A stretch of 14,096 bases of DNA, taken from IMG/VR virus record IMGVR_UViG_2563366951_000003; one strand, written 5' to 3'. Source of the DNA: a virus (lineage: Duplodnaviria > Heunggongvirae > Uroviricota > Caudoviricetes). Positions within the stretch are counted from its first letter, which is position 1. Every line of letters starts with the position of its first letter. The notes under the pieces were generated by a model, which was not told the origin of the DNA, made no database searches, and was given only the letters and a program-made list of their open reading frames with translations. Of this stretch, positions 1 to 14,096 are shown piece after piece. A program made the translations under genes and the position numbers.

Positions 1-1236
1 CTACGATAACCGCGCATTCAACATGGCTATCTGTTCGTCGTTCATGTCATCAATCCACATACCGTAAATTTTATACACCATCTGCGCAGTTTCATGCCCC
101 ATTTGGCTGGCTATAAATGCCGGGTTCGCTCCTGCCGTCAACAGCCAGCAGGCAAAAGTATGCCGCGTATGGTACGGATTACGGCGGCGAATACCAGCAC
201 GTTTTACTGCTGCATTCCACCTTGCCCCCAAACTGCTTACCGAGTAATAAGGTTTTTGTTTTCCGTTACACACCCTGGGCATGAAAACAAAATGCAGTTT
301 TTGCTTTTCGGTTCTGCCGTACTCCCGATGATAAAAGGTGATTTCGCTTTTGCGATGATGCCCGGTCAGTTTGTATTGCTCCTTCAGTGCTTCAAGAGCA
401 GGCTGCAGTAGTGTTACTGTTCGGATCCCGGCATTTGTTTTTGGGGGACCGAACATATCAAGTATCGTCAGGTTTCTTCTGACATTCACTATTCCCTTTT
501 CGAGATCCACATCCTCCCACGCCAGAGCTGCCAGTTCCCCGTGACGAAGTCCTGAGTAAACGGCAAATTTCCACAAGTTCTGGCTCTGTCCTTTTTCACT
601 TTCCATTAATGCATTGAATTCTGTTTTAGATAACGGATCAGGCTTTATTCTGTTTCGCTGTAATTTTTTTACTCCTTCAAATGGTTTGGTTGATATAAAT
701 CCCGACTGATACGCAAAACGCAACAGCGAACAGAGCAGGGCGATATAGTTATCAACTGTGCGCACGGTTCTTCCTTTTTTGTTGGATCTTGGATTATCCA
801 GGTAAAGCGTTTCTCCATGCAGCAGTTCATTCCGGTAGTTTAAGATATCGCTATAACGAATATGTGATATCGGGGTACTTTCACAAATTATTATTCTGAG
901 TGTTTTTAATTGTGATTTCGTTTTCTTCATTGTGTTTGTTGTTAACTCTGTCTCTTTAATTTTTGTCCAGATATCACAAAGCTCTCCGAACGTTTTTATG
1001 ACTCTCGTTGTCACCATTTTTGCCCCAGTGCTGGACTGGGGAAAACGTCTTAAATACTCAAATTCACCGGAGTTTATTTCATGAACTATCAGCGCTCTTA
1101 AATTTCCGGCCTTTTTAATATTACTGTTTGTAATCTCCCAGCCTTTTAATGTTTCCCGACATCGTTTTCCTCGAAACATGAACCAGATGCGAATGTATCT
1201 ACCTCTAATCTCGACACCTGTTGGTAATTTAGACAT
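1..1236 (-). CDS. intR: Prophage integrase, tyrosine recombinase (411 aa)
   Basis: Full ORF with stop at 1-3. C-terminal catalytic signature of tyrosine recombinases (HTRHT ... MVYKIYG with the Tyr nucleophile). Sequence and length match my recollection of Rac IntR. Preceded by a small excisionase-like gene. Confidence 0.93.
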   Translation of the reverse strand: MSKLPTGVEIRGRYIRIWFMFRGKRCRETLKGWEITNSNIKKAGNLRALIVHEINSGEFEYLRRFPQSSTGAKMVTTRVIKTFGELCDIWTKIKETELTTNTMKKTKSQLKTLRIIICESTPISHIRYSDILNYRNELLHGETLYLDNPRSNKKGRTVRTVDNYIALLCSLLRFAYQSGFISTKPFEGVKKLQRNRIKPDPLSKTEFNALMESEKGQSQNLWKFAVYSGLRHGELAALAWEDVDLEKGIVNVRRNLTILDMFGPPKTNAGIRTVTLLQPALEALKEQYKLTGHHRKSEITFYHREYGRTEKQKLHFVFMPRVCNGKQKPYYSVSSLGARWNAAVKRAGIRRRNPYHTRHTFACWLLTAGANPAFIASQMGHETAQMVYKIYGMWIDDMNDEQIAMLNARLS

Positions 1237-1531: not shown

Positions 1532-1741
1532 TTAATTTGAATACAATGCAATTCTCGAGGACTGAAGTTTCTCGCAATTAAAATTTATCAATTTTACTTT
1601 CTGCTCTCTGGAAACGCCTGCTTCTTTTTTACCTGAGAGCATTTTTTCGCATTCTGATTTCGTTAGTTTAGATTTTGAATATCTTGTCCAGTTAGTAGGA
1701 GTGCCACCTTCCTTTTCAATAGTGGCGGTAATTTTATACAT
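1532..1741 (-). CDS. rcbA: RcbA/YdaC small protein (69 aa)
   Basis: ORF with GGAGG 6 nt upstream of the ATG at 1741. Translation MYKITATIEKEGG... matches remembered YdaC. Its start overlaps the ralR 3' end by 8 nt. Confidence 0.8.
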   Translation of the reverse strand: MYKITATIEKEGGTPTNWTRYSKSKLTKSECEKMLSGKKEAGVSREQKVKLINFNCEKLQSSRIALYSN

Positions 1742-1984: not shown

Positions 1985-2794
1985 TTATTCCTCTGAATTA
2001 TCGATTACACTGTATTCCCCGGTTAATACAGAGGAATCTGCAGGATCGATTGTCAGTGGTTCCTTTTCATCCATTGATACTGCACGCTGGATCTCAATTG
2101 ATACGGGCAGATATTTGAACAGGCGACGAATAGCCGTTTTCTTTGCCATTTCTTCCCAGTGAGTTACCCACGGCCCGTTATTACCAGCTTTACTCAGGCT
2201 GCGCACCAGCTCAATCTGTTTGCGCGTCATAACTTCAAACTGAGTACCTCCGTCTTTCAGTCTTGCGACAGCATAGACGTGGGTAACCGGGGCATCTTCG
2301 TTTTCTCCCGGGCGGTGTATTAACTTTTCATCAAGGCCAAATTCGAAGCTAAACTCGTCACCTTCACGGACAACACGGGCTGACAGGCTGGCGATTTGAC
2401 CAGAACGGCGAGCCAGATCAATCATGCCGCGATAGCCAATGATTAGCTGAACGTTCTTTTTACCGCTCTTTTCGTTTTTATTACCAAAAGGCAGTAAATA
2501 TGCATGACCGAGGGCGCTACCTGGCTCAAGTCCGAGCTGTGAACACTGTACGATCGCACTGACAAAACTCATAGTGTCACAGTTTCCTAACGCCGGAACT
2601 TTACGAATTTCTGTGGTGGCGATACGGATCATACGTTCAGCCGTCATATGGCGTGGAAGAGCTGCTGCCAGTTGCTCTTTCATTGATGGCTGGTTAATAA
2701 AACTAATCACGTCGCTATTTTTAACTGCTGCTGGTGCACGGTTTCCCTGAGTTTTTTGCAGATCGGCTTTTGCGATTGGTGGTTGCTTAGTCAT
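1985..2794 (-). CDS. recT: RecT single-strand annealing protein (269 aa)
   Basis: Translation from [16 protein letters not shown]... matches remembered RecT. Start overlaps the recE stop by 8 nt. The tracked ORF extends 19 codons further upstream, but that overlap with recE is unlikely to be translated. Confidence 0.93.
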
Positions 2795-5387
2795 TTGCAT
2801 ATTCCTTAGCCCAGCGGGGCAGTGATAATGTCTTAATAGCTGGCCATTCATCGGTATTCAGGCAGTCAGACAGGGTTCGCAGATTGCGGTGATATTCCTG
2901 TTGACCTGCCAGTTTTGCTTCTTCGCCCATCATGAAAATTTCAACCGGATAACGTCCGCATTCAATAGTTGTGCTGGCAACCAGAAAAACGAAAGTTGGC
3001 TGCACTCCAAACTGTGCTTCATAACCGTCACTGTAGAATGCATCCTGAACGTGATAGCGGTAGTCGTAATAAGCGGTTTTGAATCGTTGAATATCCGCCG
3101 TAGTTTTCACGTCCATGATCCAGTGAAATTCAGGGATAATTTTGTCCGGACGGCACCGACACAAAATTCCTGTTTCAGGATCTTCCCAGTAAATTGATGA
3201 TTCAGCGTGTCCGGCGCTTTCAACAAGCCATTGCCCCAGCGGCAAAGCCATAACGCTTTGATACATGAGTTCAATTTTCCGGCCTTCTTCCGCAGTGATA
3301 ACCGTTTTTCCTGTGCTTGCGCATTCCATCAGAAACGCTTTCTCTTCTTCTTTTCCGGCGTTTGTACGGCGGTTAAATTCAGGTGCTACGATAAAGCGGT
3401 TACTGAATTCTTCCGGTTCAAGTACCCGGCAGTGGAAAGCAGTTCCTAAATCGAGCGTTTTTGTCTTTGTGGTGTCCACGGGGGCATTTTTACGCCACAA
3501 ATATAGTGCCGGAGTATCAGCAATGTCATCGAGCTGAGACTTACTGATACCGGGACCCGCGTGGTAATTCTCATTCGAAATTCCGTAATAAATACCTGGC
3601 TCTATGTCTTCTACGATTACGGGATCTGCGACTTCGCCAGTTTCATCACTGCAATCGCGATGCGGATCGCTGCCAGCATTCTCATTGTGCGGATGTTCAG
3701 CGCCTTCCATTTCCTCCGGATCATTTTCCTTAGCTTCAACCTGACTCTCTTCATCGAATGTTTCCTGGTATGTTGCGTCGCCCATCACCGCACCACAGTC
3801 AGGGCAGTTATCCCCGCCAGTCTGGCCGCAGGCATTGCAGGCTATTTCCGGTTCCTGTTGCACTACTGGCTCAGGTTGATTCATATCTGGGCTGGTTTTT
3901 TCCGTTTCTGGCTGGTTCTGGTACACACAATCGCGAGTCTGGATCCCCTTTACCCATTTCGGATCGTTCGGGTCGCTAATTCCGTCAACAAATTCACCAC
4001 GTGATGCAGCAAGCAATTTATCGTCATCGACAGGATTTTTTGATGGAATGTTTTTCCGGGCTTCATGGAGTTCTGCCCGCAGTTCCTGATATTTCGCATC
4101 AACAGAATTTACCTGTGACTGAGCATCCAGCGGCTGCGTGTCCTGATGATGTTCAGTTGCGTCCGGTTCCATTGTTTCAGCCTCTCCCTGTTCAACTGCC
4201 GTTGTTCCAGATGGTTGCGGTTTTTCTTCATCATCCTGTTTTCCTTCTTCTGTTACTCGCTGCGGCATCGGGGCAGAGGAGCGACCGCAGGCAATATCCA
4301 CGATTTCCGGATCAGGGTTGGCATGATCGGTTTCAGTCAGTACTTTGTTCAGATATTCAGTGACGTGCGCGGGGATGACCTCGATCCCAATTGGTGCTTC
4401 TTTTACGGACGCAACCACGATGGCGCGGGAATAATCCAGCCCGCCAGGCATGGTGATGAATTTGTCGCGGAAAACAGAAAAGGGCGGTTTATTTTCAGCG
4501 ATAATTTCCTCAATGCGTTTAGCGTGTGCCGGATGAAGGTTATAGATGTCCAGATCCATTGAACGGGCCAGTACGCCAGTGGCTACGTCGCGCGCCAGTG
4601 ACGTCAGATCGTGTACGAAACCTTCGCCGCGATCGGTGAGGTTTCCGCCGCCAGCATTAGCACCGGAAGCCGTGCGAGTGATGTGTGAAACACGATTACC
4701 CTTCATCCACTCTTTTGTCAGCAGTCCTCGATCGGTGTAGTCAGCGTTCAGGTATGCTTCGAAAAAAGCAGTTATCAGTCCCAGGTTTGAATTACCAGGA
4801 TTAGGGAAAACTTTGTCAGTGTCACGAACCAGTTTGTGGAGTTCGCGAATTTCCAGCGGGTCGAGCAGGCTGGTTTTGTGGGAAACAGCCAGGGCAGTAA
4901 CAGCCGGTAGTTCTTCAGCCCGAGCAATGTGTAATGCCTGGAGTCCGTCGCGTGAAACGTGCGTTACCGGTTTTTCGCTGCCGTGTTGAGCAAGCCAACG
5001 AATGGGCAGTTCCTGGCCAGAAATTGGGAGTAGCATATTCTCCTCAATCTCAGTCATGTCTTCGCCGTTGACGTTGGTATTGCCTTGATAGTGAGCGTTG
5101 TCTGGTGCTGCTCCCGGTTTTAGTTCCCATGTCATGGAGTCTTTGCTGAGTTGATAGCGTTCACTCCAGGTAAAATCGATCTCACCTTCAGCGGGCAGGT
5201 CATTAACGACAGGAAAATTCGTGGCAACAGCTTTAAAATAGCTGCTCAGTTTTTTACCTGACTTAACGATCAGGTAGTCCAGAGTGGCACAGGTCGATTC
5301 AAAATCGTTGCTTGCCCACAGGACGACGTCAGGTTCACTGGATGATTTTTTCGCTTTCCGTAACAGGAAGAGTGGTTTTGTGCTCAT
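2787..5387 (-). CDS. recE: RecE exonuclease VIII (866 aa)
   Basis: 866-aa ORF, the same length as K-12 RecE. The N-terminal two-thirds is acidic and low-complexity with a CxxC-x7-CxxC motif; the C-terminal third corresponds to the nuclease domain. Directly followed by recT. Confidence 0.93.
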
Positions 5388-6230: not shown

Positions 6231-6671
6231 AATTATCTCCATTTTTACAAATGAACTTTGTTGATGCGGTGCCTGGTGCCTCCAGGTGACTGCAACCAGT
6301 TAACAATTACAGTCGGCTTTCCCACCCAAACCAATAAGGACTAACATGACTTTTAACTGTGCCACGTGCGCTTAGCCGCATTCACCGCATCACAAAATTC
6401 ACTTTAAAAAGGGCGGACATCAGCCGAACTTCAAGAAAAAAACTGATGCCGCCAGGACTACACACAGCAATGTCGTTATTTACAACCGGAGGCGCACTCC
6501 CACCATTTAAATTTAACAGACAAGACCGACTCTTTATGGATATCGGAAATGCGCCTTCGTGTTGTGCCCGGTTTTATTTCACCACCTCCGGGCTTCGGTG
6601 GTCTCGGCTATACCCCTACAGCGAGAGCTTGTGTTAACATTTCAATACCCTTACAGTTGAGAGTTATTGAT

Positions 6672-7160
6672 ATGTTGGATGTATTTACTCCATTGTTGAA
6701 ACTTTTTGCTAACGAGCCACTCGAAAGACTTATGTATACGATTATCATTTTTGGTCTCACTCTCTGGCTGATACCGAAAGAGTTTACTGTCGCATTCAAT
6801 GCTTATACTGAAATACCTTGGCTCTTTCAGATTATCGTTTTTGCCTTTTCTTTCGTGGTCGCCATTTCCTTCTCAAGATTGCGAGCACATATTCAAAAGC
6901 ATTATTCATTACTACCAGAGCAACGAGTATTGCTTCGTTTATCTGAGAAAGAAATCGCTGTATTTAAAGATTTCCTTAAAACAGGAAATCTTATTATCAC
7001 TTCTCCTTGCCGTAACCCGGTTATGAAAAAATTAGAACGGAAGGGCATCATTCAACATCAGAGTGATAGCGCAAACTGTTCTTATTATCTCGTCACCGAA
7101 AAATACTCCCATTTTATGAAGTTATTCTGGAACAGCAGGAGTAGACGTTTTAATCGTTAG
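6672..7160 (+). CDS. sieB: SieB superinfection-exclusion membrane protein (162 aa)
   Basis: Translation from MLDVFTPLLKLFANEPLERLMYTIIIFGLTLWLI... has two hydrophobic helices and matches remembered SieB. The tracked 203-aa ORF has a 41-codon N-terminal extension without support. Confidence 0.85.
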   Translation: MLDVFTPLLKLFANEPLERLMYTIIIFGLTLWLIPKEFTVAFNAYTEIPWLFQIIVFAFSFVVAISFSRLRAHIQKHYSLLPEQRVLLRLSEKEIAVFKDFLKTGNLIITSPCRNPVMKKLERKGIIQHQSDSANCSYYLVTEKYSHFMKLFWNSRSRRFNR

Positions 7161-7744: not shown

Positions 7745-8164
7745 TTAAGAGGCTTTTTGTTTTTTCTTTCGTGCTAACTCTTCGTAAATTGCATTGTACT
7801 TCTGTTTTTTCTCCTCAAGAGTTTTTAAAAGTTCATCTGTCTCACTGTCAGGGAGCTCGTCCAGAAGGTCAATGATGATTTTTTGTCTTGGATTTAACTC
7901 CTGATAGAAACGTATCTGTCCACTTTCTTCTGTATCCTCTCCCAAAAGATAGGTTGGTGTTGTTCCAATGAGTGTTGCTAATTCCCTTAATTTCTCTCGG
8001 CGAGGAATTGTTTCACCATTAAACCATTTGCTAACCGCTTTTGGTGTTAATTTCATTCGACGGGCAATTTCTGCCTGCCTTCCATGTTGTTCATAACCAG
8101 CGTTTTCACAGGCTAGCGCAAGCCTACTGGCGAACTCTTTACGCGCTTTATCTTCATGAACCAT
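7745..8164 (-). CDS. racR: RacR, cI-like HTH (XRE-family) prophage repressor (139 aa from the first ATG)
   Basis: Helix-turn-helix segment QAEIARRMKLTPKAVSKWFNGETIP. Divergent from ydaS-ydaT. An in-frame stop lies 19 codons upstream of the ATG, so the protein cannot be much longer in this sequence. Confidence 0.85.
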   Translation of the reverse strand: MVHEDKARKEFASRLALACENAGYEQHGRQAEIARRMKLTPKAVSKWFNGETIPRREKLRELATLIGTTPTYLLGEDTEESGQIRFYQELNPRQKIIIDLLDELPDSETDELLKTLEEKKQKYNAIYEELARKKKQKAS

Positions 8165-8243
8165 AAGTTCAATGATATTCGCTCTTGAATGTACTGTCAG
8201 TTCTGTTATGGCATGTACTCAAAGTTCACATTGTGAGGATGAT
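8165..8243. promoter_or_regulatory. Divergent racR / ydaS promoter-operator region (OR-like)
   Basis: 79-bp gap between the divergent starts. ATGTACT direct repeats at 8189-8195 and 8213-8219, plus the small palindrome ACTGTCAGT. Position equals lambda OR between cI and cro. Confidence 0.5.
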
Positions 8244-8498
8244 ATGAACCAGAAAACACTTGAAGATGTAATCAAAACTGTTCGCGTTTCTGTTGTGGCC
8301 GACGTTTGTGGTGTCAGCCAAAGAGCAATCTACAAATGGATGGATAACGGAAAATTGCCTCGCACAGAATATACCGGCGAAACAAATTACGCTGAAAAAA
8401 TCGCTCATGCATCAAACGGATTATTTTCTGCCGATGCAATTTTAACTATTGGCAGAAATAAAACTACTACGAAAAAGCTGATGGGAGTTGATTCATGA
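8244..8498 (+). CDS. ydaS: YdaS, Cro-like HTH protein (84 aa from the SD-preceded ATG)
   Basis: HTH segment VADVCGVSQRAIYKWMDNGKLP. GAGGA precedes the ATG at 8244. In-frame ATGs at 8208 and 8172 are alternative starts but lack an SD. Stop overlaps the ydaT start (ATGA). Confidence 0.8.
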   Translation: MNQKTLEDVIKTVRVSVVADVCGVSQRAIYKWMDNGKLPRTEYTGETNYAEKIAHASNGLFSADAILTIGRNKTTTKKLMGVDS

Positions 8499-8917
8499 AA
8501 ATCAAGCATGAGCACATCGAATCAGTGTTGTTAGCCCTGGCAGCCGAAAAAGGGCAGGCGTGGGTCGCTAACGCAATTACTGAAGAATATCTGCGCCAGG
8601 GGGGCGGCGAATTGCCCCTGGTACCAGGCAAGGACTGGAACAATCAGCAGAATATCTATCATCGTTGGTTGAAAGGTGAAACGAATGCGCAAAGGGAAAA
8701 AATTCAGAAACTGATCCCTGCGGTTCTGGCAATTCTTCCTCGCGAGCTGCGTCACCGACTCTGCATCTTCGATACCCTGGAACGCCGTGCATTACTGGCG
8801 GCACAGGATGCACTGAGTACGGCAATTGATGCGCATGATGATGCAGTCCAGGCCGTTTACCGTAAAGCACATTTCAGCGGCGGCGGTTCTCCTAGCGATT
8901 CTGTCGTAGTGCATTGA
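8495..8917 (+). CDS. ydaT: YdaT, toxic protein of the RacR-controlled module (140 aa)
   Basis: 140-aa ORF translationally coupled to ydaS by a 4-nt overlap. Matches remembered YdaT. Confidence 0.85.
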   Translation: MKIKHEHIESVLLALAAEKGQAWVANAITEEYLRQGGGELPLVPGKDWNNQQNIYHRWLKGETNAQREKIQKLIPAVLAILPRELRHRLCIFDTLERRALLAAQDALSTAIDAHDDAVQAVYRKAHFSGGGSPSDSVVVH

Positions 8918-8952: not shown

Positions 8953-8961
8953 TCAGTTAAA

Positions 8962-8982
8962 TGTAACGCTGCGAGCGTTACA
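8962..8982. repeat. Perfect 21-bp palindrome TGTAACGCT-GCG-AGCGTTACA in the ydaU leader
   Basis: Read directly: 9-bp arms are exact reverse complements around a 3-bp spacer. Same core as the repeats inside ydaU. Confidence 0.8.
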
Positions 8983-8994
8983 AGGTGAAAACAA

Positions 8995-9783
8995 ATGGCT
9001 TCAAACTGGATAAAGCTCGAAGTTATTACGCCGGATAAGCCGGAAATATTCAGGCTTGCTGAGATTCTGAATATTGATCCAGATGCCGCATTAGGGAAAG
9101 TCATTCGCTTCTGGGCATGGGCGGATCAACAAATGATAGACGGTAACGCAGAGTGTAACGCTCGCGGCGTTACAAAAAGTGCAATAGATCGCATCACTTT
9201 TATGGCTGGTTTTGCTGATGCGTTAATTCAGGTTGGATGGCTGGTCGAAACTAATGGTGTGTTGTCGCTTCCTAACTTTGAGCGCCATAACGGGAAAAGC
9301 TCTAAAAAACGGGCGGTTACAAACGAGAGAGTAACAAAAATACGAGAACTGAAACGAAAAGGTAACGCTGCCAGCGTTACAAAAACGGATCAAAAAGCGT
9401 TACCAGAGGAAGAGAAAGAGGAAGATATAAATACTTATCTCCCCCTAAATCCCCCTCGCCAAAAACGAGCGTCTAAAAAATTCGAACCGGAGGCTATCGA
9501 GCTGCCTGACTGGTTGCCGGAAACACTCTGGCATGAGTGGGTTCAGTTCAGGCAGGCATTGCGAAAACCGATTCGAACGGAGCAGGGCGCTAACGGGGCG
9601 ATACGGGAGCTGGAAAAATTCCGCCAGCAGGGTTTTTCACCTGAGCAGGTGATTCGACACAGCATCGCCAATGAATACCAGGGCTTGTTCGCGCCAAAAG
9701 GTGTTCGACCTGAGACGTTACTCCGACAGGTTAACACCGTCTCGTTACCGGATAGTGCGATCCCGCCAGGCTTCAGGGGGTAA
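8995..9783 (+). CDS. ydaU: YdaU, putative replication-initiation (O-like) protein (262 aa from ATG)
   Basis: AGGTG Shine-Dalgarno 8 nt upstream of the ATG. Gene sits directly before the DnaC-like ydaV and contains multiple GTAACG palindromic repeats, as lambda O contains its ori iterons. In-frame GTG (8986) or TTG (8914) starts are possible. Confidence 0.8.
   Translation: MASNWIKLEVITPDKPEIFRLAEILNIDPDAALGKVIRFWAWADQQMIDGNAECNARGVTKSAIDRITFMAGFADALIQVGWLVETNGVLSLPNFERHNGKSSKKRAVTNERVTKIRELKRKGNAASVTKTDQKALPEEEKEEDINTYLPLNPPRQKRASKKFEPEAIELPDWLPETLWHEWVQFRQALRKPIRTEQGANGAIRELEKFRQQGFSPEQVIRHSIANEYQGLFAPKGVRPETLLRQVNTVSLPDSAIPPGFRG
9143..9174. repeat. GTAACGC half-site plus palindrome TGTAACGC-TCGCG-GCGTTACA inside ydaU
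   Basis: Read directly: half-site at 9143-9149, palindrome with 8-bp arms at 9154-9174. Confidence 0.75.
9316..9380. repeat. Degenerate GTTAC/GTAAC inverted pair (9316-9335) and palindrome GTAACGCT-GCC-AGCGTTAC (9362-9380) in an A-rich stretch of ydaU; candidate origin iterons
   Basis: Read directly. About eleven GTAACG half-sites cluster between 8960 and 9740. The arrangement resembles lambda ori iterons inside gene O. Confidence 0.6.
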
Positions 9784-9789
9784 CTGACC

Positions 9790-10536
9790 ATGAAAAATAT
9801 TGCGGCAGGCGGCATTCTTGAACGTATCCGCAGACTGGCCCCGCCACATGTAACCGCCCCATTCAAAACGGTAGCGGAGTGGCGCGAGTGGCAACTTTCC
9901 GAAGGCCAGAAACGTTGTGAGGAGATCAACCGTCAGAATCGTCAGTTGCGGGTGGAAAAAATTCTGAATCGCTCTGGCATCCAGCCATTGCACCGCAAAT
10001 GCTCGTTTTCGAATTACCAGGTGCAGAACGAAGGGCAGCGATACGCGTTGAGTCAGGCGAAATCCATCGCTGATGAACTGATGACCGGGTGTACAAATTT
10101 TGCGTTCAGCGGAAAACCTGGTACCGGAAAAAACCATCTGGCGGCGGCTATCGGGAATCGCCTGCTGAAAGATGGCCAGACAGTGATTGTGGTTACCGTG
10201 GCTGATGTCATGAGTGCCCTACACGCCAGCTATGACGACGGGCAATCAGGCGAAAAATTTTTGCGGGAACTGTGCCAAGTGGATCTGCTGGTTCTTGATG
10301 AAATTGGCATTCAGCGCGAGACAAAAAACGAGCAGGTGGTGCTGCACCAGATTGTTGATCGCCGGACAGCGTCGATGCGCAGCGTGGGGATGCTGACAAA
10401 CCTGAATTATGAGGCCATGAAAACATTGCTCGGCGAGAGGATTATGGATCGCATGACCATGAACGGCGGGCGATGGGTGAATTTTAACTGGGAGAGCTGG
10501 CGTCCGAATGTCGTCCAGCCAGGAATTGCGAAGTAA
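9790..10536 (+). CDS. ydaV: YdaV, DnaC-like AAA+ helicase-loader replication protein (248 aa)
   Basis: Walker [11 protein letters not shown] and Walker B LLVLDEIG motifs. Position is equivalent to lambda P/DnaC. Length matches remembered YdaV. Confidence 0.9.
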
Positions 10537-10558
10537 TTTTTACCGGGAGAAAAATTTA

Positions 10559-11320
10559 ATGGAGACTGTTTTTGACGCACTGAAAGCAATGGGAAAAGCC
10601 ACATCCATAGAACTTGCTGCGCGACTTGATATCAGCCGTGAAGAAGTGCTGAACGAACTATGGGAACTGAAAAAGGCTGGTTTCGTTGATAAAAGCGCGT
10701 ACACCTGGCGTGTGGCTGATAACAACGTTCAGCAGGAACAGCCAGCGCCGGCAGAACTGCCGGAAGAAACTACCACGGCAACAGTCGCGAAAATTTCAGA
10801 GAGCGATTTAACTGCGACGATTGAACAACGTGGTCCACTAACTGCGGATGAACTGGCTACGTTGTTCGGTACCACATCCCGCAAAGTGGCTTCAACGCTG
10901 GCAATGGCAATCAGCAAAGCTCGTCTGATTCGCGTTAATCAGAACGGTAAATTTCGTTACTGCATGCCGGGCGGTAATTTACCAGCAGAGCCGAAAGCTG
11001 CATCGGTAGCGGAAACAGATGGTAAAGCCTTTCCTCAGCTAGCCGGTGTTGCGTTACCAGTACAGGAAGCTGCAACACAGGAAGATATTAAAACAGAAAC
11101 TGTGGCGGACATTGTGCAGTCGTTGCCATCGTTTACTGAAACGCAAGCGGATAACCTGATTTTACCATCGCTGCATATGGCAAACCGTGAACTGCGTCGG
11201 GCGAAAAATCATGTCCAGAAGTGGGAGCGAGTCTGCGCCGCGCTGCGGGAGCTGAACAAGCACCGGGATATTGTTCGACAGATTACTGATTCTTCCCGCC
11301 GTGTTGTATCGGAAAAGTGA
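10559..11320 (+). CDS. Uncharacterised prophage protein with winged-helix-like N-terminal region and basic/coiled-coil C-terminus (253 aa); possibly the intact counterpart of K-12 ydaW
   Basis: GGGAGA SD 8 nt before the ATG at 10559. The tracked ORF starts at 10508 inside ydaV without an SD. Two segments resemble winged-helix folds ([31 protein letters not shown] and [34 protein letters not shown]). Family assignment is from memory only. Confidence 0.7.
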
Positions 11321-11335
11321 TTGCCGGAGGCGCTT

Positions 11336-11758
11336 ATGGCAAAAGTATTTACACAAGAAGAGCGGGAAAAAATTAAAGGGCAGGTTGTTGAACTAGTACG
11401 CCGGAGTGGGCGCGAGACGTTACGGCAACTGGAAGCCAAGACAGGTGCGACAAGATATCTGATGAGCGTTCTCGCCAGAGAGCTGGTTGCCAGTGGCGAT
11501 GTATACAACTCTGGTTACGGGTTATTCCCGTCTGAACAGGCTCGTAAGGACTGGCAAAATGCCCGCAAAAAACTATCTAGGGCAAAGCTGAAGAAACCGG
11601 TTGTGGTTGATCCGGACCTTATCTGGTCATTACCTGACGGAGAAATACGTCGCTACGACAGTCGCCTAAACATAATCTGTCGCGAGTGCCGGAAGAGCGA
11701 AGTTATGCAGCGCATATTGTCGTTTTATCAGGGGGATGTTCGGTATTTATTGAAGTGA
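11336..11758 (+). CDS. Uncharacterised prophage protein (140 aa) with winged-helix-like N-terminus
   Basis: GGAGG SD 5 nt before the ATG at 11336. Follows the previous gene after a 15-nt gap. Segment ETLRQLEAKTGATRYLMSVLARELVASGDV resembles a winged-helix fold. No match to a characterised protein that I can recall. Confidence 0.65.
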   Translation: MAKVFTQEEREKIKGQVVELVRRSGRETLRQLEAKTGATRYLMSVLARELVASGDVYNSGYGLFPSEQARKDWQNARKKLSRAKLKKPVVVDPDLIWSLPDGEIRRYDSRLNIICRECRKSEVMQRILSFYQGDVRYLLK

Positions 11759-12092
11759 CGAGATTAAAGTGCATTAGTTCAGATGCAAATTGACATTTTG
11801 TGGCACAGGGTAGAGCTAGCGTGGTTGTCCGCTTTGTGCCAAGAGCAGACGCTGGTAATTCGTGCCTAATATACTTCACTTAACTTATATCCCAGCTTTG
11901 ATACAGATCATACAAATTAAATGCCCCAGTAATTGGCAGGCTGAGTAACTTAAAACTCCTTAGAATATAGGATGATTTGTATCGGCACTCATTCCACCAT
12001 GCATTCCGATTAACCCCGCATAGCCAGTTGAACTTTGCTACTCTGTGAGAGGTAGTACCTTCTATCCAGTGCGGATTTAATTAATGGAATAA

Positions 12093-14096
12093 ATGATTAT
12101 GAGTGAAAATGATACAACCCCAAAGAAGTCTACAAGCCAGATTAACAAAGCGGTATTCTTTACATCTGCTTTGCTAATTTTCCTTCTTGTCGCCTTTGCC
12201 GCCGTATTCCCGGATGTCGCCGACAAAAATTTTAAACTACTTCAGCAACAAATCTTCACGAATGCCAGCTGGTTCTACATACTTGCTGTGGCCCTGATTT
12301 TACTGAGCGTCACGTTCCTTGGACTCTCACGTTACGGTGATATAAAGCTGGGCCCAGACCATGCGCAGCCTGATTTCAGCTACCACTCCTGGTTCGCGAT
12401 GCTTTTTTCGGCAGGGATGGGGATCGGCCTGATGTTCTTTGGCGTTGCCGAACCTGTGATGCATTATCTTTCGCCACCTGTCGGCACTCCAGAGACCGTT
12501 GCGGCAGCGAAGGAAGCCATGCGCCTGACGTTCTTCCACTGGGGTCTGCACGCATGGGCAATTTATGCCATCGTGGCGCTGATTCTGGCCTTTTTCAGTT
12601 ACCGTCACGGTCTGCCTTTAACGCTGCGTTCTGCGCTCTATCCCATTATCGGCGATCGCATTTACGGGCCTATAGGCCACGCGGTTGATATCTTCGCCGT
12701 GATAGGCACTGTCTTTGGCGTTGCAACATCGCTGGGTTACGGTGTATTGCAGGTGAATGCCGGTTTGAACCATCTTTTCGGCGTGCCCATCAATGAAACG
12801 GTACAGGTCATTTTGATCGTGGTCATCACGGGGTTAGCGACGATTTCGGTGGTGTCCGGCCTGGACAAGGGAATACGCATCCTGTCTGAGCTTAATCTGG
12901 GCCTGGCGGTGTTGCTCCTGGCGCTGGTCTTGTGCCTGGGTCCCACTGTGCTTCTGCTGAAGTCATTTGTGGAAAATACGGGTGGTTATCTGTCGGAACT
13001 GGTGAGTAAAACGTTCAACCTTTACGCGTATGAACCCAAGTCGAGCAACTGGCTGGGGGGCTGGACATTATTATACTGGGGATGGTGGCTTTCATGGTCG
13101 CCGTTTGTAGGTATGTTCATTGCACGCGTTTCCCGCGGCAGGACAATTCGTGAGTTCGTGACTGGCGTGTTGTTTGTTCCCGCCGGCTTTACGCTCATGT
13201 GGATGACGGTGTTTGGAAACAGCGCCATCTATCTCATCATGAACCAGGGCGCCACTGACCTCGCCAATACCGTTCAGCAGGATGTTGCGCTTGCCCTGTT
13301 TAATTTCCTGGAGCATTTCCCGTTCTCTTCCGTGCTGTCATTCATTGCAATGGCGATGGTCATCGTCTTCTTTGTAACGTCTGCTGATTCGGGGGCAATG
13401 GTTGTGGATACTCTGGCATCAGGTGGGGTGGCAAACACGCCCGTCTGGCAGCGAATTTTCTGGGCATCGCTCATGGGCGTTGTTGCTATTGCCCTGCTGA
13501 TCGCAGGGGGGCTGAGTGCGTTGCAAACCGTAACGATAGCGAGTGCATTGCCCTTCTCAGTTATCTTATTAATATCCATATACGGACTGTTAAAAGCCCT
13601 GCGTCGGGATTTGACCAAGCGTGAAAGCCTTAGCATGGCGACTATTGCTCCTACGGCTGCACGTAACCCAATTCCCTGGCAGAGAAGGTTACGCAATATC
13701 GCGTATTTGCCGAAGCGCTCTCTTGTGAAACGTTTTATGGACGACATTATCCAACCCGCCATGACGCTGGTTCAGGAGGAACTTAACAAGCAGGGAACGA
13801 TAAGCCACATCAGTGACGCCGCCGAGGATCGTATTCGCCTTGAAGTCGATTTGGGCAACGAGCTGAATTATATATATGAAGTGAGGCTTCGCGGGTATAA
13901 CTCACCGACCTTCGCGCTCGCTGCGCTGGATAATGATGAGCAGCAGAGTGAACAACATCGATATTATCGCGCTGAAGTCTATCTCAAAGAGGGCGGCCAA
14001 AATTATGATGTAATGGGCTGGAATCAGGAACAGCTGATTAATGACATACTGGACCAGTACGAAAAACACCTGCACTTCCTGCATCTGGTTCGTTAA
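12093..14096 (+). CDS. BCCT-family transporter, BetT-like choline/betaine transporter (667 aa, complete)
   Basis: Multiple hydrophobic helices and the BCCT tryptophan-rich signature (GGWTLLYWGWWLSWSPFVGMFIARVSRGRTIREFV). Roughly 170-aa hydrophilic C-terminal extension ending ...ILDQYEKHLHFLHLVR, resembling E. coli BetT. Stop TAA at 14094-14096. ATG at 12099 is an alternative start. Confidence 0.88.
   Translation: MIMSENDTTPKKSTSQINKAVFFTSALLIFLLVAFAAVFPDVADKNFKLLQQQIFTNASWFYILAVALILLSVTFLGLSRYGDIKLGPDHAQPDFSYHSWFAMLFSAGMGIGLMFFGVAEPVMHYLSPPVGTPETVAAAKEAMRLTFFHWGLHAWAIYAIVALILAFFSYRHGLPLTLRSALYPIIGDRIYGPIGHAVDIFAVIGTVFGVATSLGYGVLQVNAGLNHLFGVPINETVQVILIVVITGLATISVVSGLDKGIRILSELNLGLAVLLLALVLCLGPTVLLLKSFVENTGGYLSELVSKTFNLYAYEPKSSNWLGGWTLLYWGWWLSWSPFVGMFIARVSRGRTIREFVTGVLFVPAGFTLMWMTVFGNSAIYLIMNQGATDLANTVQQDVALALFNFLEHFPFSSVLSFIAMAMVIVFFVTSADSGAMVVDTLASGGVANTPVWQRIFWASLMGVVAIALLIAGGLSALQTVTIASALPFSVILLISIYGLLKALRRDLTKRESLSMATIAPTAARNPIPWQRRLRNIAYLPKRSLVKRFMDDIIQPAMTLVQEELNKQGTISHISDAAEDRIRLEVDLGNELNYIYEVRLRGYNSPTFALAALDNDEQQSEQHRYYRAEVYLKEGGQNYDVMGWNQEQLINDILDQYEKHLHFLHLVR

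Follow-up and report, generated by a model that had tools for sequence, protein, structure and literature searches.

Two early winged-helix genes of a Rac-type E. coli prophage: an intact form of ydaW and a longer homologue of lambda ren

A stretch of viral DNA of 14,096 nucleotides (Caudoviricetes; IMG/VR record IMGVR_UViG_2563366951_000003; hereafter the window) was analysed around two adjacent genes, here called gene A (253 aa) and gene B (140 aa), which are already catalogued and are ordinary early genes of Rac-type E. coli prophages. Judged from sequence comparison, gene A is K-12 ydaW in its intact form, and gene B is assigned as a longer homologue of phage lambda Ren, located where lambda has ren. 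As mosaic modules, A and B are independent of each other and do not make up a two-component system. The best guess for their function, to which we give a probability of roughly 40%, is that they encode early accessory, anti-exclusion proteins that would protect the phage via their winged helices; it was formed by analogy with the escape of lambda from Rex by way of Ren and with the blocking of a retron toxin by the K-12 YdaW fragment in one screen. The original prediction for this DNA fared well in its reading of winged helices, of an intact ydaW and of an accessory role as a guess, and failed in its view that the products lack any characterised relative and in its idea of a conserved unit.

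Locus and operon context

Gene A was located at 10559..11320 (+), with an ATG at 10559 and a TGA stop at 11318-11320, and was identified as full-length ydaW, encoding a DUF1627 protein, by Pfam, PHROG, RefSeq and dN/dS; gene B, which encodes a DUF977/'LygF'/Ren-like protein (Pfam, PHROG, hhalign, dN/dS), was located at 11336..11758 (+), with an ATG at 11336 and its stop at 11756-11758. The intergenic gap is 15 nt (11321-11335) and both genes lie on the same strand. Shine-Dalgarno sequences were read directly from the DNA as GGGAG for gene A (10545..10549, +; 9 nt upstream of the ATG) and GGAGG for gene B (11326..11330, +; 5 nt upstream of the ATG), and the gene sizes, good ribosome-binding sites and short gap that had been predicted are borne out by these coordinates. 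The predicted position directly downstream of a replication module was likewise found: gene A is preceded by a ydaU-like replication initiator of the same rightward early operon (8995..9783, +; phrog_2509 'replication initiation protein', E 5e-88), which is annotated beside ydaV in a 100% identical genome region, and by ydaV itself, a DnaC/IstB-like helicase loader (9790..10536, +; Pfam IstB_IS21, E 6e-20; phrog_50 'DnaC-like helicase loader', E 5.5e-85) that ends at 10536, 22 nt before the start of gene A. The order in the window is initiator, loader, A, B.

Between ydaV and the stop of gene B, neither a sigma-70-type promoter nor an intrinsic terminator was predicted. No operator candidate in the form of a repeat or palindrome was found near the two genes, and an Rfam search returned no RNA genes in the A-B interval. 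The sole Rfam match in the whole window was RalA (1557-1735). Shared Rac-like sequence ends at 11846, as E. coli W and other strains match the query at 1-1447 only (window 10400-11846), and a variable cargo slot starts beyond; in the window a BCCT transporter occupies it from 12093, relatives have different cargo, and the GC content falls to 0.40 across 11700-12300. With A and B, the conserved part of the rightward early (replication) operon comes to its end in this Rac-type lambdoid E. coli prophage, which is integrated at ttcA. Median dN/dS against distinct alleles was 0.17 for gene A and 0.12 for gene B, and homologue searches returned thousands of relatives for each; because of the family matches, the thousands of homologues and the low dN/dS, both are real genes, far above chance open reading frames and under purifying selection.

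Gene A and K-12 YdaW

Gene A matched Pfam DUF1627 (PF07789) with 323 bits (E 3.3e-97; gathering threshold 28.1 bits), residues 88-242 aligning to positions 1-155 of the 155-position profile, and matched phrog_630 with E 7e-128 (residues 1-249 on 1-252 of 253). It is identical to RefSeq WP_000450660.1 ('DUF1627 domain-containing protein'), and RefSeq proteins identical to A and to B already carry the labels DUF1627 and DUF977, respectively. Gene A has the full-length architecture of the class of about 250 aa, with an N-terminal winged helix and the DUF1627 region, and aligns end to end with seven diverse homologues. The best 120 homologues per search were 85-96% identical, which is too close for an alignment of any depth, and a third search with a 7-sequence profile reached 59-77% identity for gene A; a profile scan of genome contigs with an 8-sequence alignment returned only five loci.

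AlphaFold2 predicted three folded parts. Winged helix 1 (residues 1-52; 10559..10714, +; pLDDT 90-95) has an H-E-H-H-E-E topology and is the most conserved domain, 29 of its 52 columns being invariant among the seven diverse homologues; it is slightly acidic (net charge -1), and its recognition helix is acidic, which argues for a protein partner. Pfam matches of this domain to HTH_Crp_2, HTH_20 and MarR stay below threshold. Winged helix 2 (residues 80-137; 10796..10969, +; fold modelled over 81-135 with pLDDT about 90) is basic (net charge +3, pI 9.6) and gave weak matches to FeoC, HVO_A0114 and phrog_142. A long basic helix (net charge +5, pI 10.4) forms the C-terminal part (residues 194-253; 11138..11317, +), the helix itself being modelled over residues 194-252 with pLDDT 70-84; its core motif (residues 212-234, 23 aa) is almost wholly conserved in the diverse homologues compared, and across residues 200-235 of the diverse homologues 21 of 36 columns are invariant. 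In the model, gene A is built of two winged helices joined by acidic disordered linkers, followed by the conserved basic helix. The winged-helix starts of both proteins, the second such segment in the larger one and its basic C-terminus had all been anticipated from the letters alone, and the predicted domains (A 1-52, A 80-137 and, for gene B, 7-64) and C-terminal helix agree with this.

When the gene A model was searched with Foldseek, the best matches were tandem winged-helix scaffolds (ESCRT-II, ScpB and the C-terminus of SelB). These matches span both winged helices with E 1e-4 to 1e-2, but TM-scores are 0.2-0.3 at about 15% identity, and the winged helices of gene A are split by a 25-residue disordered acidic linker and do not pack against each other; as modelled, the likeness is one of fold class and is not evidence of homology. 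Searched one by one against PDB sequences, proteins A and B gave nothing below E 0.3, and a gene A profile recovered only the FeoC and ST1889 winged helices (E about 0.1). In PADLOC-DB, gene A matched nothing but the winged-helix parts of Csa3/CARF, and these weakly (E at least 3e-4). With paralogy in mind, winged helix 2 of gene A was also aligned with the winged helix of gene B (hhalign probability 62.7%), and phrog_142 matched gene A with E 1.9e-4; this likeness probably reflects generic fold similarity.

K-12 YdaW (b1361, 186 aa) has the same place after ydaV in Rac and is 94% identical to gene A over residues 1-151, which include both winged helices, and then diverges; its last 35 residues are unrelated to gene A and the conserved C-terminal helix is absent. 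Comparison of the window with NC_000913 by blastn gave 96% identity over 9707-11008 and nothing beyond, so that position 11008 is the last base homologous to K-12 Rac and marks the left edge of a deletion. K-12 Rac is without gene B and without about half of gene A. K-12 ydaW is a deletion product, truncated at codon 150 by a deletion that also took out gene B, in keeping with the original prediction that K-12 Rac carries a degraded ydaW and that the window may hold the intact form.

Gene B and lambda Ren

Gene B matched Pfam DUF977 (PF06163) with 99.9 bits (E 1.6e-28; gathering threshold 22.1 bits), residues 1-135 aligning to positions 1-133 of 134, and matched phrog_142, 'Ren-like exclusion protein', with E 5.9e-45; no Pfam or NCBIfam match except DUF977 and no PADLOC-DB match were obtained. 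Lambda Ren itself falls in phrog_142 (E 1.6e-41). When 17 DUF977 representatives were aligned with lambda Ren by hhalign, the probability was 95.5% (E 1.4e-8, Ren residues 16-93), while a shallow alignment gave 71.8% only, on the C-terminal motif. In BLASTP, gene B aligned with Ren residues 73-92 at 45% identity (E 5e-6), and pairwise similarity is limited to these about 20 residues of the C-terminal motif and is undetectable elsewhere. The motif of gene B (11654..11728, +) reads Y-D-x-x-x-N-I-I-C-R-E-C-R-K-S-E-V-M-Q-R-I-L-S-F-Y and is conserved across DUF977 representatives; the form common to both proteins is N-x-(I/V)-x-x-E-C-R-x-S-x-x-M-x-R-(I/V)-L-x-x-Y.

Both proteins belong to the same PHROG family, have an N-terminal winged helix and are basic, with a pI of 9.9 in each case, and both genes share a position, lambda having the order O, P, ren and gene B likewise lying directly after the replication genes. 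The differences are in size and in detail. Gene B is 44 residues longer (140 aa against 96 aa), and the two parts that it has in common with Ren are set apart by an additional basic helix (residues 67-85) and a disordered linker, so that it departs from the compact Ren architecture of about 96 aa; the first cysteine of its C-x-x-C is a phenylalanine in lambda Ren, and lambda Ren scores below Pfam DUF977 and is left outside that family by Pfam. On the strength of the profile alignments, the PHROG membership and the gene position, gene B is assigned to the Ren homologues. The statement that neither product resembles anything characterised therefore does not stand, since gene B is a lambda Ren homologue in the ren position and both products belong to long-standing Pfam families. 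The name 'LygF', given by phage annotators to homologues of gene B, comes from the Sdf/SdrI region of Salmonella Enteritidis, where lygF is listed among the SdrI genes and adjoins ydaO (PMC4490851); the name is function-free, and the comparison was made by name alone.

The winged helix of gene B (residues 7-64; 11354..11527, +) was predicted with pLDDT 91-95, in a model built from a shallow alignment and with low confidence in its C-terminal third. A Foldseek search of this model against BFVD gave generic winged-helix matches only (E at least 4e-3) and did not recover lambda Ren. The best PDB sequence matches of the DUF977 profile were PKZ Z-alpha domains (E 6e-4 to 1.5e-3); a Z-alpha assignment of gene B was rejected, as the Z-DNA-binding residues are not conserved: the Asn/Tyr pair of the PKZ recognition helix faces consensus Arg/Lys (mapped to Ser44/Arg48 in gene B), and the Pro-Pro-x-Trp of the wing is lacking.

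The folds raise the alternative that A and B are conventional winged-helix transcription regulators, acting at specific DNA sites on delayed-early or late phage genes or on host genes. Confidence in the predicted winged helices of both proteins is high, Foldseek places the gene B domain closest to the IclR, GntR and MarR winged helices, and a basic charge marks gene B as well as winged helix 2 of gene A. One list of putative E. coli transcription factors whose function is unknown includes YdaW (PMC9308461), and DUF977 has been classed as a winged-helix DNA-binding domain (PMC2686095). All matches to named regulators are, however, below the Pfam and NCBIfam cut-offs: for gene A, HTH_Crp_2 reached 26.9 bits (cut-off 27), HTH_20 24.1 (27), MarR 17.5 (24.6) and the NCBIfam ArsR/SmtB model 27.7 (55). 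The lack of a repeated or palindromic candidate operator near the genes, the acidic recognition helix in winged helix 1 of gene A and the tandem protein scaffolds that are its nearest folds also speak against this reading, and lambda Ren is not known genetically as a regulator. A role of this kind is considered possible but unlikely.

Distribution, linkage and possible function

DNA like gene B was found in 4,084 of 5,426 complete E. coli genomes (about 75%) and DNA like gene A in 2,710 of the same 5,426 (about 50%), and the families of A and B are thus very common. Sequenced phages whose genome records contain both genes include Rac-SA53, Tritos and HannyBb. The ydaW-lygF pair is present with the same order, spacing and post-replication position in the records of Rac-SA53, vB_EcoS-673R7, POCJ13, 75/02 Stx and PhiR5_2, in which protein identity is 50-95% to A and 66-94% to B; these records differ by alleles or mosaicism and by downstream cargo only, and in PhiR5_2, for instance, an N-terminus of the POCJ13 type is joined to a C-terminus of the Rac type.

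The 15-nt gap on one strand and the presence of a gene B homologue 18-51 nt downstream at all 80 of the closest gene A loci in IMG/VR would suit an obligate two-component unit, whether a toxin-antitoxin pair, a defence system or a jointly working heterodimer, and the original prediction had raised the pair as a possible conserved unit. The co-occurrence data already contradict this. Besides the unequal numbers of genomes given above, 12 phage records carry both genes, 12 carry A only and 12 carry B only; gene B directly follows the initiator, with A absent, in 48 of the 75 evaluable closest-B loci; PPompW phages and an Actinobacillus phage record have gene A but no gene B; the allele identities of A and B are uncorrelated (r = -0.16); and gene B is equally similar whether A is present or absent. 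Membership of A or B in a defence system or toxin-antitoxin pair was rejected, there being no PADLOC match above winged-helix noise and no toxin-like domain. An obligate unit is accordingly regarded as highly improbable.

The same loci bear on the possibility that A and B are replication accessory factors, which would adjust the initiation of prophage replication by binding to the loader, to DnaB or to the origin complex. The genes always lie directly behind replication genes with no promoter predicted from ydaV to gene B, and ScpB and other proteins of replication and segregation also have tandem winged helices. Growth of lambda does not require ren, and K-12 Rac does without gene B and half of gene A, both of which count against such a role, as do the uncorrelated allele identities and the indifference of gene B to the presence of A. 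In addition, position is constant across replication modules of different kinds, gene A following DnaC-like, P-like or DnaB-like genes, that is, three unrelated types of loader or helicase, and gene B following either gene A or, straight away, an initiator without an intervening loader; these varied neighbours make a specific partnership with one replication protein unlikely. Support comes from a two-hybrid study in which Rex proteins interact with both lambda O and Ren, and ren is described there as 'likely involved in DNA replication' (bioRxiv 10.1101/2021.04.19.439022). On balance a replication role is judged distinctly unlikely.

The preferred reading is that of accessory proteins with an anti-exclusion role. 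Expression of A and B would fall early in lytic growth, on one transcript with the replication genes, and both proteins would be non-essential; their winged helices would bind a partner, which may be a protein or, for the basic gene B, a nucleic acid, and abortive-infection or exclusion systems would thereby be kept from stopping phage replication and lytic development. Gene B may act like lambda Ren against RexAB, and gene A may serve as adaptor or blocker towards a toxic effector. Lambda Ren reportedly allows lambda to escape Rex exclusion. The two-hybrid interaction of Rex proteins with lambda O and Ren is a further hint in this direction. K-12 ydaW is listed among the genes whose over-expression blocked the retron-Sen2 toxin RcaT; this was a screen hit with the truncated K-12 protein, whose place among the 11 individually validated blockers could not be confirmed (bioRxiv 10.1101/2020.06.22.160242). 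Points against the reading are the short stretch of pairwise similarity between gene B and lambda Ren, the 44 additional residues of gene B, the position of lambda Ren outside DUF977 and the description of ren as 'likely involved in DNA replication'; in an analysis centred on A and B, moreover, no rex-like genes came to light in the window. The neighbouring defence cargo varies but gene B hardly does, so a role of gene B as cognate antidote to this cargo is rejected. By analogy with these systems, the accessory or anti-exclusion role named in the original prediction is a reasonable guess.

As a discovery the finding is of small value, as RefSeq labels exist for both proteins and published genomes of Rac-like phages contain ydaW and lygF in the same intact arrangement. 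Its use lies in clarification: the 140-aa protein is best regarded as a homologue of Ren and the 253-aa protein as the intact form of the YdaW that is truncated in K-12, and the two should not be treated as a functional pair. Escape from Rex (Ren) and retron-toxin blocking (the YdaW fragment) are the only functional hints, and they point to counter-defence. A wider and doubtful extension would make the 'ren slot' of lambdoid prophages a dedicated counter-defence position, at which full-length YdaW, as a tandem winged-helix adaptor, would neutralise abortive-infection effectors such as RcaT and DUF977/Ren proteins would neutralise Rex-like exclusion. If this were true, half to three-quarters of E. 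coli genomes would carry unrecognised anti-abortive-infection genes, and these genes would adjoin a hotspot of defence cargo exchange.

Prophage context and gene order

The window corresponds to the left arm of a lambdoid E. coli prophage of the Rac type. From left to right it carries intR (1–1236, minus strand), recT, recE (2787–5387, minus strand), sieB (6549–7160), a divergent repressor/Cro-like pair (7745–8164, minus strand, and 8172–8498) and then, all rightward, ydaT (8495–8917), a ydaU-like replication initiator gene (8995–9783) and ydaV, encoding a DnaC/IstB-like loader (9790–10536). The full-length ydaW follows (gene A, 253 aa; ATG at 10559, TGA at 11318–11320, GGGAG Shine-Dalgarno site 9 nt upstream) and, after 15 nt, a Ren-like gene (gene B, 140 aa; ATG at 11336, end at 11758, GGAGG site 5 nt upstream), so that the tight linkage and the Shine-Dalgarno sites of the original prediction were recovered. 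Both are real genes: curated family thresholds were far exceeded, each had thousands of homologues, and median dN/dS, calculated against 30–46 distinct gapless IMG/VR alleles, was 0.17 for A and 0.12 for B. The 1.8-kb stretch spanning them recurred at 100% identity in 14 complete E. coli genomes, and in one of these ttcA, the Rac attachment site, adjoined the prophage. A consensus scan from ydaV to the end of gene B returned no sigma-70-type promoter and no plus-strand intrinsic terminator, and the simplest reading therefore places A and B, like lambda ren, in the distal part of the rightward early operon.

A palindrome of 21–25 nt, TGTAACGC-N5-GCGTTACA, was present three times (8959–8983, 9151–9175 and 9358–9382; spacing 192 and 207 nt), once just upstream of the ydaU-like gene and twice inside it; by analogy with the lambda iterons in gene O, the copies look like initiator binding sites, i.e. 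the prophage origin. The C-terminus of the ydaU-like product (9733–9783) ends in ...(S/E)(L/P)PD-x-(A/E)-IPPGFRG, a tail common to three otherwise dissimilar initiators of 262, 358 and 339 aa (the others at 2884–3960 of relative L005 and 2941–3960 of relative L028), and this tail may act as a peptide that docks onto a host replication protein. Next to the 358- and 339-aa initiators gene B followed directly and the loader gene was absent. The sole Rfam match in the window was the RalA antitoxin sRNA (1557–1735, plus strand; RF02694, 219 bits), overlapping the ralR/rcbA region on the opposite strand.

Gene A is the intact form of K-12 ydaW

Gene A matched Pfam DUF1627 with 323 bits and, along its entire length, PHROG 630; it is identical to RefSeq WP_000450660.1, already labelled 'DUF1627 domain-containing protein', and is named 'YdaW family' in phage records. 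The statement that K-12 retains only a degraded ydaW was borne out, since K-12 YdaW (186 aa) was 94% identical to gene A over residues 1–151 and unrelated beyond, DNA homology ended at position 11008, and in K-12 the rzpR pseudogene and trkG came next; a deletion has reduced ydaW to a remnant in K-12, and gene A is the intact form.

An AlphaFold2 model, built from a 64-sequence alignment (69–92% identity), contained the two expected winged helices (residues 1–52, pLDDT 90–95, and 81–135, pLDDT about 90), disordered linkers (57–76 and 142–199, both pLDDT below 50) and the expected basic C-terminus as a single long helix (194–252, pLDDT 70–84). Charge and conservation were evaluated on seven homologues down to 50% identity: winged helix 1 was slightly acidic, with a net charge of −1 in its recognition helix, and winged helix 2 (+3) and the C-terminal helix (+5) were basic. 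The best conserved parts were winged helix 1 (29 of 52 columns invariant) and the helix core at 200–235 (21 of 36, including a conserved 23-residue motif), while the linkers varied freely. In a Foldseek search of the PDB, tandem winged-helix scaffolds (ESCRT-II, ScpB, SelB, UFL1) were matched at E 1e-4 to 1e-2, ahead of MarR-type regulators; these matches to a predicted model indicate fold class only. The modelled architecture resembles a scaffold.

In the PhiR5_2 allele (4001–4768 of locus L248, compared with L247 and L249), winged helix 1 and its linker were POCJ13-type and the second half Rac-type, and recombination breakpoints therefore lie in the disordered linkers.

Gene B, its neighbours and its range

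Gene B scored 99.9 bits against Pfam DUF977 and fell into PHROG 142 ('Ren-like exclusion protein') at E 5.9e-45; in phage annotation it goes by LygF, a name originating from the Salmonella Enteritidis Sdf region. Lambda Ren (from NC_001416) also fell into PHROG 142 (E 1.6e-41) and matched no Pfam family above threshold. Directly compared by BLASTP, the two aligned in the C-terminal motif only (NIICRECRKSEVMQRILSFY versus NLVFKECRQSAAMKRVLAVY, E 5e-6), and a shallow profile did no better (71.8% probability); a profile built from 17 diverse representatives aligned with lambda Ren over residues 16–93 (95.5% probability, E 1.4e-8). Because of the shared PHROG, the motif and this alignment, gene B is, judged by sequence, a longer homologue of lambda Ren. 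Both have this C-terminal motif, a pI of 9.9 and an N-terminal winged helix, the latter agreeing in the predicted structure of gene B with the opening segment originally proposed, whereas gene B adds a basic helix and a disordered linker between the shared parts. Every sequence-based membership test placed A and B within existing families, except that the size and compact architecture of lambda Ren were not found in gene B. Both are members of existing families and nothing of a new kind was encountered: the interval preserves well an arrangement that had been annotated before.

The gene B family is narrow, with 101 clusters at 50% identity, many of them fragments, in an exhaustive phmmer search of 1.84 billion representatives. 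A one-genome-per-species scan gave five loci, three in Escherichia or Shigella and two in metagenome bins; in the latter, assigned to 'Collinsella sp.' and 'Veillonella parvula', gene B was 91–94% identical to that of E. coli, and these contigs probably derive from E. coli prophages and were mis-binned.

B-like DNA was present in 4,084 of 5,426 complete E. coli genomes, against 2,710 with A-like DNA (1,325 of these at ≥80% coverage). An obligate two-gene system would fit the 80 IMG/VR loci closest to A, all of which had a B homologue 18–51 nt downstream, but is very improbable: the identity of these homologues to gene B (53–100%) did not track that of A (r = −0.16), and A was missing at 48 of the 75 loci that were nearest to B and could be evaluated, where B directly followed a replication initiator. 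In the phage collection, A and B each had a relative in 24 records and only 12 held both, with A alone in PPompW phages and one 'Actinobacillus' phage record, and B alone in Tritos, HannyBb, mEp460 and others. Conservation as a pair, for which such a distribution had been named beforehand as contrary evidence, was thus refuted. The genes upstream of A were of three kinds (DnaC-like, P-like and DnaB-type helicase), and the constant trait of A and B is their position right after the phage's replication module, not partnership. The 'Actinobacillus phage vB_Apl-pPE4' record (PP818812.1) unexpectedly showed, for a Pasteurellaceae phage, the Rac-like order dicA-ydaT-replication-ydaW, with a YdaW 71% identical.

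Directly after gene B lies a variable slot (11847–14096), occupied in the window by a BCCT transporter gene from 12093, and then, in an identical genome, by a DUF2254 gene and IS elements. At eight related loci the cargo was an IetA-type ATPase, a DUF262 gene of NsnA/GmrSD type together with an AAA ATPase (E. coli W), a NACHT/STAND NTPase, QueH, a NUDIX hydrolase, or genes of unknown type; in K-12, trkG lay beyond the deletion scar. This slot resembles a hotspot of defence genes and further accessory cargo. A role for gene B as a specific antidote to the adjacent cargo was ruled out, since it stayed 92–98% identical across loci whose cargo changed completely.

Possible functions of the two proteins

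The gene ren is reportedly the one by which lambda escapes Rex exclusion (Toothman and Herskowitz 1980). K-12 ydaW, in which both winged helices are kept, was a screen hit among the over-expressed prophage genes that block the retron-Sen2 toxin RcaT (10.1101/2020.06.22.160242). Rex proteins interacted with lambda O and Ren in a two-hybrid assay, and ren was termed 'likely involved in DNA replication' (10.1101/2021.04.19.439022); that A and B are replication accessory factors is nevertheless rather unlikely. Slightly less doubtful is that they are ordinary DNA-binding regulators: YdaW appears in a list of putative transcription factors (PMC9308461) and DUF977 is described as a winged helix, fused to Fic domains in some proteins (PMC2686095), while all matches to named regulator families were below threshold and a scan for candidate operator repeats near the two genes found none. 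A Z-alpha domain was ruled out on key residues, and neither protein matched the defence-system models.

Because of the Ren, RcaT-screen and winged-helix hints, the acidic recognition helix, the scaffold-like gene A and the lack of operator repeats, our best estimate (probability roughly 0.4) is that A and B may be dispensable early accessory proteins, which would bind partners and thereby keep abortive-infection or exclusion systems from disrupting lytic development. Both families are very common in E. coli prophages, and the few functional hints for them point toward counter-defence.
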